From positions 23,792-87,791 of IMG/VR virus record IMGVR_UViG_3300044811_000031: DNA of 64,000 nt; one strand, 5' to 3'. Below, one piece after another: positions 6,401-53,612 of this stretch. The notes below the pieces were generated by a model, which was not told the DNA's origin, ran no database searches, and worked only from the letters and a program-made list of their open reading frames with translations. Source of the stretch: a virus. The translations under genes were made by a program, and so were the position numbers. Each line of letters opens with the position of its first letter. Positions within the stretch are counted from its first letter, which is position 1.

Positions 6401-6913
6401 GTGGCCTGGACCGAGAGCCGGATCTTCCAAGAGTGGCCGAAGTCGGTGTTCGGCCAGGGCCAGACTGCTGCCGTGCTCCCGGCCGCCTACGCGGGCCTGG
6501 GTGCCGACTCAGTCAAGTTCGCCCTGTTCGGGGGCAACACCCCGGACCGCACCGTGGCCATCACCGCCACCGGCTACAACGCTGCCGGATCCCAGTGGGT
6601 CGTCGCCAACGAGAAGACCGGTGGTGGCTCGTCCGCGTGGGTGACCGCCGGGCGCGTCCTGGCGTCCAAGACTTTCACCACCCCGTCCACCGGCGTGTTC
6701 ATGTTCGATGCGGCCGACCTCACCGACGCCGCCGCGTCCACCATGTCCGGTGTTGAGGGCGGCCTCGTCTTCGATGACACGATCACCGTCGGCACCGGCG
6801 GCATCGCCAAGCAGGGTGTCTGCTACAACTGGTTCGGCGGCTCCCAGTCGGTCACGGCCGGAACTTTTTCGGTCGTTTTCAACGCCAACGGCATCCTCCG
6901 CATAACGGTCTGA
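6401..6913 (+). CDS. Putative virion structural protein
   Basis: 170 aa, Gly/Thr/Ala-rich, beta-rich; GAGGT RBS. Confidence 0.6.
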   Translation: MAWTESRIFQEWPKSVFGQGQTAAVLPAAYAGLGADSVKFALFGGNTPDRTVAITATGYNAAGSQWVVANEKTGGGSSAWVTAGRVLASKTFTTPSTGVFMFDAADLTDAAASTMSGVEGGLVFDDTITVGTGGIAKQGVCYNWFGGSQSVTAGTFSVVFNANGILRITV

Positions 6914-6955
6914 CCTGGGGTTACGCCTCTTAACCGGGTACGGTAAACTGTACCC

Positions 6956-12467: not shown

Positions 12468-12967
12468 CCACCACCGGACCGCTCAAGTTCTACACCGTGG
12501 CGGAAGCCGTCCGCGTCGCGGTCGACGCCGCACTGACCTACTCCGTGCAGCGGTCCGGTGTGGTGCCGGGGGCCATCGCCTGGGACGAGTGCGACTGCGG
12601 CCTGCTCGCGGTGTCCACCGGCCGGGCGTACCTGAGCGACAACTTCCCCGAGGAGGAGACCACCCGGATCGGCCAGTGTGAAGCAGCATGGGAAGTGATC
12701 GAGATCGTGGTGCAGATCATCCGCTGCGCCCCCGGCCCGCAGGGTGAGAGCCAGCTCGCCCCGACCGTGGCCGCTCTGGACGCGTCGGCGCAGATCATGA
12801 TGACCGACCTCCAGCAGGCCCTGGCCGCCATCGCCCTGTGGATCTGCACCAGCAAGGACTCCGGTCTGATCGTTGACGGTATGATCATGCCGTCCGATCC
12901 GCAGGGCCCCGAGGGCGACTGCGTCGGCTCCGAACTCCACGCCGTAGTCGCGCTGCCGAGGGGATGA
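12464..12967 (+). CDS. Tail terminator/completion protein
   Basis: PGAIAWDECDCG, GPEGDCVG; GGAGG RBS. Confidence 0.6.
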   Translation: MTTTGPLKFYTVAEAVRVAVDAALTYSVQRSGVVPGAIAWDECDCGLLAVSTGRAYLSDNFPEEETTRIGQCEAAWEVIEIVVQIIRCAPGPQGESQLAPTVAALDASAQIMMTDLQQALAAIALWICTSKDSGLIVDGMIMPSDPQGPEGDCVGSELHAVVALPRG

Positions 12968-13347
12968 TCTCCGTGGCCCAGATGAGGATCAACATCGACC
13001 AGACCGCCGTCAAGCGGATGCTCGATGAGCCCGGCGGTCCGGTGGCCTGGAACATGGACCGCCGGGCGAAGCGCGTCGCCACCCGGGCGCGGCAGCTCGC
13101 TCCCGGCAGCATGAAGCGCAAGATCACTACGTCAACCGCGAGCGGCCACGTCCGGGTCGAGTGCAGCCACCCGGCCGTGCTGTACGTCATCCAGGGCACC
13201 CGGCCGCACATCATCCGGCCGAACCGGCGCAAGGCTCTGCGGTGGTCCTCCGGGGGCAGGTTCGTCTTCGCCAAGCTGGTCCACCACCCCGGGAACAGGG
13301 CCAACAACTTCCTGCTCAAGGCCATGCGAGAGGCGTCCGGCCGCTGA
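12964..13347 (+). CDS. Neck/tail completion protein (HK97 gp10-like)
   Basis: GTRPHIIRP, VHHPG..ANNFL. Confidence 0.65.
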   Translation: MISVAQMRINIDQTAVKRMLDEPGGPVAWNMDRRAKRVATRARQLAPGSMKRKITTSTASGHVRVECSHPAVLYVIQGTRPHIIRPNRRKALRWSSGGRFVFAKLVHHPGNRANNFLLKAMREASGR

Positions 13348-13350
13348 GGA

Positions 13351-13563
13351 GTTATACGGCCGTCGGGTGCCGCCTTGTTACCGGCTCGTACTGATCATGT
13401 CTTGACCAGGCGGAATGCCGAGCAGAAGAGGCTGGCCCGCTCGTACCAGGGTCTCCGGGAGAGGCCGGGAGAAGGGAACCTCCGGACTTTCCTACCCTAC
13501 GTAGTAGTAACTTCCCTGATAACTACGGATAGCTACCGTATACCTACGCTGGCCGCCGTATAG
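13351..13563 (+). repeat. Dispersed ~200-bp non-coding element, copy A
   Basis: Gapless alignment to 53243-53455 and 40107-40268. Confidence 0.9.
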
Positions 13564-13621
13564 CGACGCCTCGGATCGAGTCCGGAAAGATCATGGTTTT
13601 CGACCGCCTACGGTGATCGGC

Positions 13622-33214: not shown

Positions 33215-33235
33215 CGTGCTCTCCTCTCGTTTGAG

Positions 33236-33305
33236 TGTCCTCAACAGGATTCGAACCTGTGGACTCCGGCACTAGCAACCGGCGCGCAACCGATGCGCTG
33301 AGGAC
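33236..33305 (-). ncRNA. Atypical compact tRNA-like RNA (central loop triplet CUA)
   Basis: Perfect acceptor stem GTCCTCA/TGAGGAC and T arm ACAGG-TTCGAAT-CCTGT; 5-nt D loop; CCGG-TTGCTAGTG-CCGG. Confidence 0.7.
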
Positions 33306-39359: not shown

Positions 39360-39918
39360 TCTCTCCTGGTGTCGCTGGGGTGGTCCGTGCGGGGCGCCGG
39401 GTTGCGACCCCGGCCGTCGTGGTGACCGGCCGGTCGATCCGGGGATCTCGTCCCCGGCGTCCCAGTGCGCGGTAAGGGTCTGACCCCCGACCGTGCCTGG
39501 CGGATTGTGGCTCCGCCGGGCCGTGTGGTGCTTGTGCCTGGCCGTGCTCGCCGGTCTGGCCGGTCGAGTCGTTCCGCAGGCGATCGTGCTCGTGTATAGG
39601 TGACGCTCTCGATGTCGCGGCTAAGTACCGTCCGGGGCGGTCCGTGAGGATCACCGCTGGGTGGCTCGCTCGATCGTTTCGTGCTGGCGCTCGATCCCTC
39701 GCGCTTACCCCGCCCGGATGTGTCCGACGTGATCAGTCAGTGCCGTATGTCCTCGGCTGATCACCGGCCGTCCCCGGGCAGCGTTTCCGCTGCTGGATCT
39801 TGCTTCCGTTTTCTTGGGGAGGGTCGGTGCCCTGTCGCCGGTCGCGCTTCCGCTTTTAGGCCCTCCCCGGTTCCCCGGGGGCTCTGCCTGGGACTTGCCG
39901 CTTGCCCCTGCCCTACAA
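39360..39918 (-). ncRNA. Long structured 5' leader or candidate ncRNA
   Basis: ~560 nt between promoter and first RBS; several hairpins; no convincing ORF. Confidence 0.5.
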
Positions 39919-39923
39919 CCACA

Positions 39924-39952
39924 AATATACGGGCGGTAGTGAGTTATGTAAA
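39924..39952 (-). promoter_or_regulatory. Sigma70/HrdB-type promoter
   Basis: TTTACA-17 nt-TATATT on the - strand. Confidence 0.75.
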
Positions 39953-40106
39953 GTCTCACTTAAGCCTCTGACCTGGGGCTTTCAAACTCGTAGGTAAAGT
40001 GTTGGTAAAGTGATCAAGGCTTCGGGGGCCCTCAACCCCCATACGAATGAGGCAAGTTCACTGACCTGGGGTTATACGAAAACTATGCGAGGCCACCGGC
40101 CCGGAA

Positions 40107-40268
40107 GTTACCGCGCCGTAGTGATCAAGCTCTGACCAGGGGAAATCCCTAGCAGAAAGAGCTGGCCCACTCGTACCGGGCCAGCTCCGAAAGGCTCTTA
40201 GACGGCAACCTCGCCGTTTTGCTACCCTACGTATCAGTAACTTGAAGGATAATTACCCATAGCTACCG
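40107..40268 (+). repeat. Dispersed non-coding element, copy B
   Basis: Gapless alignment to 13377-13538. Confidence 0.85.
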
Positions 40269-40293
40269 GCTCCCCAACCGGTAGCTGACATAT

Positions 40294-40668
40294 TTATTCG
40301 GTCGCCTTCAGCCGCTGCTTCATGATCTTGTGGTCGGTTCCGGACTGCCGGAGCGACCGGACCATGGCCGCGAAGGCCAGGCAGCAGATCGCCAGAGAGA
40401 TCATCGCGATCATGAGCGCCTGAGCGATCATGACGAAGACGACCGCGACTCCGGCCAGAGCGATCATGGCCCAGACCGCGAGGACGAAGTGACCGGCGTA
40501 CCGGCTGGCGATGTCCATCTCCGGCACCGGCACCGGCGCGACGGCCGGAGGGTAGTGGTGGTGATGGATCTCGATCTTGTTGACGTTCGGCTGCGCCCAG
40601 TCCCGCTCGGCCATGTCGTACCGGGTGTACTCGACCAGCTCTGCCAGACGCGCCTGCTGCTCATCCAT
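40294..40668 (-). CDS. Membrane protein (Spd-like)
   Basis: IHHHHY.P followed by 2 TM segments. Confidence 0.6.
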   Translation of the reverse strand: MDEQQARLAELVEYTRYDMAERDWAQPNVNKIEIHHHHYPPAVAPVPVPEMDIASRYAGHFVLAVWAMIALAGVAVVFVMIAQALMIAMISLAICCLAFAAMVRSLRQSGTDHKIMKQRLKATE

Positions 40669-53199: not shown

Positions 53200-53242
53200 C
53201 TGCTCTCCTCAGTCATGCTCTCCTGGTCAGCGTACCCGGTAG

Positions 53243-53455
53243 GTTATACGGCCACCCCCACCCGTCTTGTTACCCACTCGTACTGATCATGTCCTGACCA
53301 GCCACTATCCCGGAGAGCGGAGCCTGGCCCGGTCGTAGAGCCCCTGCTCCGGTAGGCCGGGAGAGAGGAACCTCGGCACTTTCCTACCCTACGTAGTGGT
53401 AACTTGCAGGATAATTACCGACGGTTATCGTATAGCCAACCGGTCTGTCGTATAG
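53243..53455 (+). repeat. Dispersed non-coding element, copy C
   Basis: 213-bp gapless alignment with 13351-13563. Confidence 0.9.
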
Positions 53456-53456
53456 A

Positions 53457-53612
53457 TCACTTGGCTCCGGCCAGCCCCAGAACGGTGCCCATAACGATCA
53501 GCGCCATGAGGGTCAGCCACACAATGATCACGATGAACTTCCACGAGGACAGCCGCTCGACACGGGCGGGGAGGGACACCCGGTGGGTGCCCCTCCCGTG
53601 CTGTCCGGTCAC
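53457..53612 (-). CDS. Small membrane protein
   Basis: GTGA-coupled; one TM. Confidence 0.5.
   Translation of the reverse strand: MTGQHGRGTHRVSLPARVERLSSWKFIVIIVWLTLMALIVMGTVLGLAGAK

Follow-up and report, generated by a model that had tools for sequence, protein, structure and literature searches.

The window analysed here is a stretch of 64,000 nucleotides, bases 23792-87791 of an 87,791-bp IMG/VR virus record that is rated complete and coded G000. It holds three members of a family of non-coding cassettes of ~220-230 bp, which is undescribed and so far known only from a single clade of soil phages that are uncultured and have high-GC (Streptomyces-type) genomes. Our preferred reading, to which we give a probability of roughly 40%, is that the cassette is a mobile regulatory unit that would work mainly as DNA bound by a phage protein. 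This reading is supported by selection on the cassette, fixed spacing of its parts, boxes that are essentially confined to cassettes, relocation between sites, positions at seams of gene content and an invariant -10-like word.

Four copies of the cassette in one genome

Alignment confirmed copies A, B and C at the places given in a preliminary description of this stretch, together with the conserved blocks reported there. With copy A as the query, within-genome BLAST returned copy C at E = 1e-33, copy B at 4e-20 and a fourth copy, D, at 3e-22, all far beyond chance. The three copies first described were real, and the total for the 87.8-kb genome is four, copy D lying outside the window. The single orientation ascribed to the copies is likewise true inside the window and limited to it, because copy D is on the opposite strand. 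Profile envelopes gave a unit size of ~250 bp (positions are those of the window unless marked as genome positions):

13340..13587, + strand: copy A, whole cassette (profile envelope)
40059..40305, + strand: copy B, whole cassette, long form (profile envelope)
40260..40287, + strand: terminator-like 10-bp hairpin with a T-run in copy B, replacing the right-hand boxes
53225..53482, + strand: copy C, whole cassette (profile envelope)
genome 13589-13805 (BLAST), genome 13577-13827 (profile envelope), inverted strand: copy D, ~10 kb before the window start

All copies are non-coding and intergenic, as had been claimed. Copy A has a 127-aa gene (stop TGA 13345-13347) on one side and a 143-aa tail-region gene on the other, and runs in the same direction as both. 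Copy B, previously taken to span ~160 bp, proved to be full length (profile 40059-40305). It lies between two leftward genes, antisense to both and just upstream of a strong leftward promoter (39952..39924); its left spacer carries a 10-bp insertion, and its terminator-like hairpin immediately follows the stop codon of the leftward gene 40294..40668. Copy C is antisense among leftward genes, with its right-hand box 1 nt from the stop of the upstream frame (53457-53459, minus strand). The alignment of A, B and C, described as gapless, was nearly so, with a few gaps present. Recent duplication could be excluded, as the preliminary description had argued, since within-genome identity was only 56-63% over the full envelope and 72-75% over the core aligned by BLAST; purifying selection nevertheless acts on the family (see below).

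The family is found on uncultured soil phage contigs

Further members were recovered with an 18-base core pattern, searches with neighbouring proteins and a profile model (R1) built from the copies. The family now counts 27 distinct copies, every one on a contig of an uncultured high-GC soil phage. Nine IMG/VR records account for 14 of them: G000 has four, G002 and G006 have two apiece, and six others have a single copy each. Another 13 came from a scan of soil metagenome contigs. Copy number was 1-4 per phage record, with four in the complete genome G000; all the other related contigs are fragments. No copy was present in either of two further relatives, the records G009 (estimated to be 76% complete) and G010. 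A BLAST search of 50,697 phage records gave no match, the cultured phages being without the cassette, and plasmids gave none either, while the scan of 185,579 prokaryote genomes (GTDB) returned chance matches to the 18-base pattern only. The element had not been recognised as a described one, and the comparison with Rfam agreed with this: there was no match at gathering score in the window, and none overlapping any copy at E up to 5.

The cassette is assembled from two kinds of box and a near-invariant core

Two short motifs, here called M1 (the 8-bp CCGTATAG box) and M2 (GTTAC-N5-CGTA), recur on the two arms of the cassette and enclose a set of conserved words, a variable hairpin and a core. 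In copy A the parts are placed as follows:

13352..13359, + strand: left M1 box (TTATACGG, the inverted form of CCGTATAA/G)
13377..13390, + strand: left M2 box (GTTAC-N5-CGTA)
13392..13409, + strand: conserved TGATCA and (C/T)TGACCAG blocks
13428..13458, no strand assigned: central variable hairpin region, loop near CGTACC
13488..13513, + strand: near-invariant 26-bp core (TTYCCTACYCTACG-N5-GTAACT), including the right M2 box, inverted
13494..13499, - strand: -10-like TAGGGT, with a poor, AT-rich -35 candidate 17 bp upstream
13536..13543, + strand: right M1 box 1 (CCGTATAC)
13556..13563, + strand: right M1 box 2 (CCGTATAG), exactly 20 bp past box 1, as in every copy checked

The 27 homologues fall into two length classes, 215-222 or 229-231 bp, and the 10-bp step between them occurs only in the left arm, in the spacer that separates M1 from M2. 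The strong conservation of spacing noted earlier was therefore confirmed, as two classes 10 bp apart with the right-hand CCGTATAG boxes always 20 bp from each other. The further claim of helical phasing found no support: there was no significant 10.5-bp periodicity in conservation, and the best period, 12.75 bp, was below the 95% null.

The boxes hardly occur elsewhere. The hexamer TATACG/CGTATA is present ten times in the 87.8-kb genome, nine times within the four cassettes and once at 147 bp left of copy B. The M2 boxes form an inverted pair ~121 bp apart, and all seven genomic occurrences of the pattern are within cassettes. The N5 of the left M2 box differs between copies and, in many of them, pairs with the stretch preceding GTTAC. 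Between the two M2 boxes lie the conserved TGATCA and CTGACCAG words and the central hairpin, whose sequence varies. The 26-bp core, found also at 40218-40243 in copy B and 53380-53405 in copy C, is the best-conserved part of the cassette, and the interior as a whole is conserved above the ends.

In the A-type layout the left arm has one inverted M1 box and the right arm two direct ones. In the D-type layout, with five boxes in total, the left arm has two boxes placed head to head and the right arm one additional inverted box. The inverted end boxes of A, B and C (TTATACGG ... CCGTATAG) are only 7-9 bp long and imperfect. The outermost boxes of D-type copies are repeated directly instead of being inverted. 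A large dyad symmetry of the whole element was also considered and rejected, as only the short boxes match between the arms and z was ~0 in most copies. All M1 boxes within one copy are of the same variant, TATAC or TATGC, so that a left TATGC goes with GCATA at both right positions. A helix between the ends would need one partner, and both right boxes change with the left, which points to common recognition by a protein.

The cassette does not encode a protein and is under purifying selection

A coding reading was rejected. The sole open plus-strand frame (in copies A, L026 and L013) is interrupted in roughly half of the copies by a TAG, TAA or TGA stop, D-type copies carry frameshifts in the frame that is open in copy A, and the homologues taken together have stops in every frame. 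A phage tRNA with a CUA anticodon would not rescue the open frame, because the stops are not TAG only.

Selection was judged from the orthologous copies at site D in G000 and G006. These are 77% identical, against 78% (nucleotide) for the adjoining lysin gene and 61% for four-fold synonymous sites in the same comparison, where 44% is expected from composition. The constraint on the cassette is therefore about as strong as that on coding DNA, and orthologous copies have been kept at one site while synonymous sites approached saturation. This comparison indicates that the cassette family is under purifying selection and is not a neutral relic.

A promoter-like word is invariant in the core

Read on the bottom strand, the core has the form AAGTTAC-N5-CG-TAGRGT-AGGRAA, and TAGRGT is present in 28/28 sequences (the 27 distinct copies and the near-identical L110). 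The -10 form in Streptomyces is TAGRRT, which TAGRGT fits. A promoter, set aside in the preliminary description, is again a candidate because this word is invariant on the bottom strand in all 28. The -35 candidates, hexamers such as TTATCA or TAATAA, are poor. A generic sigma-70 scan found no promoter in copies A or C and did not call TAGRGT, and no plus-strand promoter was evident. The spacer around the -10-like word is invariant as well, which ordinary promoters do not need, and we count this against a regulatory cassette. The right M2 box overlaps the -10-like hexamer, as an operator would.

Several other signals suggested by eye did not hold. For a T7-like promoter used by a phage RNA polymerase no polymerase gene was found, the 751-aa protein being an exonuclease; the AAC of an ECF-type promoter is not conserved here; the TACTACG of a pMV158-type nick site is not invariant; and a lambda boxA-like word and integron attC core sites gave no fit.

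Transcription from the putative promoter would run toward the left end of the cassette. At sites D, E, F, B and C (sites are listed below) this is the direction of the flanking genes, and at A, A' and G it is the opposite one. The three site groups opposite to the genes, of which A is filled in four phages, were counted against a regulatory cassette. At site D in G000 the order is lysin gene, a 160-nt spacer with a long hairpin, cassette, and then the terminase/portal/head gene block, a place where one would expect a late or middle promoter.

Copies occupy at least eight sites, in either orientation, with relocation or conversion between them

By synteny to G000, the copies in nine related phages fall into eight site groups (sense and antisense give the cassette plus strand relative to the flanking genes):

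site D, antisense: lysin gene, then packaging/structural block; in G000, G002 and G006
site E, antisense: directly after the replicase gene; in G002 and G006
site F, antisense: before a 744-aa gene; in G003
site A', sense: 201-aa gene, then 127-aa gene; in G004
site A, sense: 127-aa gene, then 143-aa gene; in G000, G001, G007 and G008
site B, antisense: a G000-specific junction; in G000
site C, antisense: behind the ParB-like genes; in G000
site G, sense: before the helicase gene; in G005

The flanking genes are co-directional at every site, and the cassette is found in either orientation between them. At most sites the upstream stop codon is 0-2 nt from the cassette and a ribosome-binding site is on the other side.

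Sites A', C and E are polymorphic for presence or absence among the relatives. Four phages have a cassette at site A, and in G003, G004, G009 and G010 this junction is empty. Where G004 holds the A' cassette, the G000 genes overlap by ATGA, and at site C G005 has a plain hairpin instead of the cassette and keeps both ParB-like genes. Gene content also differs right beside the D and E sites in G000, G002 and G006. After site D, G000 has genes for proteins of 88 aa and 56 aa and for an epimerase, G002 has the epimerase gene only, and G006 has an unrelated 322-aa gene; the site E locus has two ORFan genes in G000 where G002 and G006 have the cassette. In the tree of copies, D clusters with its orthologue from G006 and the two copies of G002 with each other; the A-site copy of G007 falls with D-type copies, and C goes with the E-site copy of G006. 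Site polymorphism, tree clustering and the differences at the seams together show relocation, or conversion, between sites.

At the filled and empty junctions A, A' and C the flanks are too diverged for anything beyond a trivial GG to be read as a target-site duplication. A search for excision joints over B and C in contigs from four soil DNA runs found none that was informative; one joint, 40177->53354, proved to be copy A aligned across B and C.

Gene context and candidate partner proteins

A gene map based on GC3 places genes rightward to about genome position 50 kb and leftward past that point. Pfam and PHROG matches identified a primase-helicase-PolA fusion, a TET/JBP cassette, a lysin, a terminase, a portal and a major head protein, and further ParB-like and DUF6551 proteins, a helicase and an exonuclease. 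Among the ~45 phage proteins scanned, a subset of all, there was no phage RNA polymerase, integrase, transposase or HUH enzyme, no ParA-type ATPase and no obvious partner that would bind the cassette. Presence and absence relative to the copy-free relative G009 left five candidate partners, none with a Pfam domain. The lack of a partner among the ~45 proteins, like the poor -35 and the missing sigma-70 call in A and C, was counted against a regulatory cassette.

The position of copy C had suggested a connection with the two ParB-like genes just upstream. This connection is not conserved: the corresponding junction is empty in G005, which has both genes, and the other copies are at seven unrelated sites. 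In work on a ParB-dependent thymine dioxygenase, the ParBs are without a DNA-binding domain and no loading site is known (PMC13229309), and for these reasons that system gave no lead here. A word resembling block 3, CGTAACGATCAAG, occurs once more in the genome, in the replicase linker at genome position 3279, where 0.03 occurrences are expected. As a linked site it was rejected, because it is not conserved in G006 or G002.

Individual copies fold, without a common RNA structure

Single copies were more stable than dinucleotide shuffles of the same sequence, with a mean z of -1.9 on the plus strand and -2.0 on the minus strand; folding thus had no preference for either strand, and G-U pairs were not in excess. 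We also compared the duplex energy of arms from the same copy with that of arms taken from different copies (swap test). For the central hairpin, p was 0.001 on both strands. The left hairpin (p = 0.05 and 0.009) and end-to-end pairing (p ~0.05) gave marginal results, and the right hairpin and two control pairings gave null ones. The central stems are fully different between copies, some being perfect over 10-14 bp, and the stem is weak in copy A. The central hairpin has no U-tract, and a terminator-like hairpin is found in copy B only. Because cognate-specific complementarity is present in the central hairpin and, more weakly, in the left hairpin and the end-to-end pairing, some nucleic-acid structure is selected.

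A covariation check on 27 sequences found no column-wise consensus RNA fold on either strand. With RNAalifold, the core gave -0.9 and -2.2 kcal/mol on 14 sequences, essentially no consensus structure, and the 27 sequences, at -0.9 (z -0.8) and -1.1 kcal/mol (z -0.5), did not outperform column shuffles. A scan of column pairs returned just one 4-bp helix despite the nearly gapless alignment, and the register of the stems slips from copy to copy. What is selected is hairpin propensity, as with terminators or inverted-repeat DNA, and not a fixed RNA architecture. The cognate-specific complementarity of the hairpins was counted against a regulatory cassette, as was the lack of a significant 10.5-bp periodicity.

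Weighing the explanations

In a mobile regulatory cassette, the 8-bp CCGTATAG end boxes and the inverted GTTAC-N5-CGTA pair would be operator-like sites for a sequence-specific phage protein, the bottom-strand TAGRGT, overlapped by the right GTTAC-N5-CGTA, could start transcription toward the left end, and the variable central hairpin may serve as a leader or terminator-type stem. Much of the same evidence could be read as a selfish, non-autonomous MITE-like element, in which end boxes and core are binding or cleavage sites for a transposase or recombinase acting in trans and conservation serves mobility. The cassette is small, non-coding and multi-copy, it has inverted end boxes in A, B and C, nine related phages have it at eight sites, in both orientations and with junctions that are filled in some and empty in others, its copies partly cluster by genome and not by site, and its folding z of ~-2 on both strands is as in inverted-repeat DNA. 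We nevertheless find this reading doubtful. A target-site duplication could not be shown at junctions A, A' and C with their diverged flanks, the outermost D-type boxes are direct, conservation peaks in the interior core and not at the ends, and the scanned proteins included no transposase, integrase or HUH enzyme. A parent IS borne by a host is also argued against, because none of the 185,579 prokaryote genomes has a copy, and orthologous copies stayed in place over a time in which synonymous sites came near saturation.

Alternatively the cassette could function as RNA, either as a co-transcribed, structured intercistronic element (a stabiliser or processing site like ERIC or REP) or as a self-contained small RNA gene. 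The stability of single copies agrees with this, and so do the central hairpin arms, which differ fully between copies and yet are complementary, the left-hairpin stems flanking a conserved GTTAC loop, the end boxes, which can pair in both variants (TATAC/GTATA -> TATGC/GCATA), the plus-strand intrinsic terminator at the end of copy B, and the way the cassette abuts stop codons within operons. This is unlikely in our view, given stems that slip in register with no fixed-column consensus despite a nearly gapless alignment, no strand preference or G-U excess, two right-hand boxes that change together though one helix partner suffices, no Rfam match even at E up to 5, and no evident plus-strand promoter; co-transcription would, moreover, expose opposite strands at different sites. 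A dispersed site for genome handling, centromere-like for the ParB-like proteins or an auxiliary replication site for the primase-helicase-PolA fusion, seems equally improbable. Prophage N15 has four dispersed centromere sites, and the iterons of the P4 crr region act in either orientation. The two box types of the cassette, in inverted order on its two arms at fixed spacing, form a layout that resembles boxA/boxB of P1 parS and the type I iterons of P4. Its orientation is independent of transcription, copy C is downstream of two ParB-like genes, the E-site copies are directly behind the replicase gene in two relatives, and the replicase linker contains the CGTAACGATCAAG word at genome position 3279. 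But the ParB-gene junction is empty in G005, no ParA-type ATPase is among the scanned proteins, the linker word is not conserved in G006 and G002, the related G009 (estimated 76% complete) is without any copy, and close relatives carry the cassette at different positions, as would not be expected of origins. We give no better odds to a self-relocating nucleoprotein site, that is, a two-box array which, with a dedicated phage protein, would organise the genome (as a dispersed centromere, a replisome-loading or crr-like site, or a looping anchor) and would spread between seams without a classical transposase.

Hardly any non-coding control DNA has been mapped in uncultured soil actinophages. Since the cassette is at one major gene-block boundary and at module seams, it offers a handle on the timing and insulation of transcription and on the exchange of gene modules, and its short exact boxes (CCGTATAG, GTTAC-N5-CGTA and the 26-bp core) can be used for pull-downs, reporter assays and metagenome mining. 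A genome-handling site, if that reading is true, would be the more unusual finding.

Comparison with known systems

Set against the criteria for MITEs, PeSL cassettes, Rfam families, structured RNAs and ParB-parS centromeres, the cassette lacks at least one defining feature in each case. BIME/RIP elements of enterobacteria are mosaics of short alternating palindromic units with a conserved internal motif, located behind stops in operons and present in hundreds per genome. The mosaic layout and the placement at stop codons are similar, whereas there is no sequence relation, and host, scale and units differ. The centromere sites of P1 (parS) and N15 are 16-90 bp long and have a demonstrated ParB partner and ParA. 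They share with the cassette two short kinds of box arranged asymmetrically on two arms and the dispersal of several sites over a phage genome; in contrast to them, the cassette has no obvious partner among the ~45 proteins scanned, and its position beside ParB-like genes is not conserved. Actinobacteriophage stoperators and the SAS/ESAS of Cluster K, 13-35 bp and bound in orientation to gene starts, are, like the cassette, phage-specific repeated non-coding words tied to actinophage gene expression, but the cassette is composite, 220-230 bp long and found in either orientation.

The nearest described systems in behaviour appear to be the bacterial MITE-like intergenic repeats and the PeSLs of T4-type phages. 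Correia/NEMIS elements (Neisseria), ERIC/IRU elements (enterobacteria) and viral MITEs, the last surveyed in viral genomes (PMC11602168), share with the cassette the size, the absence of coding, inverted end motifs (as far as copies A, B and C go) and the occurrence in either orientation. They also share a location in transcribed intergenic spacers, presence or absence at orthologous sites, and internal regulatory words. The cassette differs from them in that no target-site duplication could be read in its diverged flanks and no parent IS was found, its interior is conserved above its ends, and it is restricted to phages at 1-4 copies per genome. PeSLs (promoter-early stem-loop) are mobile regulatory cassettes of T4-type phages (Arbiol et al. 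2010, PMC2839356). Like our elements they are small, repeated, intergenic and non-coding, join a stem-loop to a promoter-like element and are located where the gene content of relatives diverges; unlike them they are shorter, have strong canonical sigma-70 promoters and proven terminators and run with the genes (PMC2839356). The cassette, at 220-230 bp, has additional box arrays, a promoter that is predicted only (good -10, poor -35) and three inverted site groups. If it is indeed a movable promoter-operator unit, it would be the actinophage counterpart of the T4-type PeSL cassettes.

Coding potential of the cassette

A predicted tRNA that reads the amber codon is carried in this part of the genome:

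window 33235-33305, minus strand, tRNA with anticodon CTA, labelled tRNA-Pyl by ARAGORN

The same interval was scored as a tRNA by Rfam (40.6 bits). The possibility that the cassette (the repeated non-coding element) is a gene rescued by this CTA-anticodon tRNA was ruled out, as its in-frame stops are not TAG alone, and the tRNA therefore does not make the cassette a gene.

Surroundings of the cassette copies

A second short repeat, (T/C)CTGACCTGGGG(T/C)T, is found three times in the window:

6906-6925, end of the gene 6401..6913
39964-39985, 100 bp to the left of copy B
40057-40075, left edge of copy B

In one contig of low depth from a soil sequencing run (X3), position 39855 was joined to 40061 and 205 bp were missing, corresponding to the stretch from the strong leftward promoter to copy B. 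This single contig suggests that a natural variant of the spacer 39855-40061 exists.

Two features were recorded beside copy C:

about 53565-53597, minus strand, GC-rich hairpin behind the ParB-like/DUF6551 gene
within 53457-53600, minus strand, open frame following the hairpin and ending 1 nt before copy C

The final ~33 codons of this frame are strongly hydrophobic.

A word resembling the cassette block CGTA-N2-GATCA(A/T)G, CGTAACGATCAAG, has one further occurrence (0.03 expected by composition), in the linker of the replicase (primase-helicase-PolA fusion; L027:3279-3293, genome 3279, outside the window), where it adjoins GTTAC/GTAAC inverted repeats. It was not conserved in G006 or G002, the two related phage records compared.

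Insertion context

At site A', the junction of the 201-aa and 127-aa genes, a cassette in the related phage G004 (L031, reverse strand 1500-1745) splits two tail-region genes which in this genome lack the cassette and share an ATGA overlap (window 12964-12967). In G004 the upstream stop, TAG, directly abuts the cassette; a GTG preceded by GGAGATC serves as the new start of the downstream gene. At site A, the word GGAG/GGAA-GATC-(T/A)TG is retained in the spacer that precedes the 143-aa gene, with or without the cassette:

window 13585-13621
L010:2879-2921
L011:2905-2947
L012:2880-2922

At site A', and likewise in the metagenome copies L109 and L138, the cassette is followed by a similar word. 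The word may be a sequence context favoured for insertion, or else a translation signal that these junctions share.
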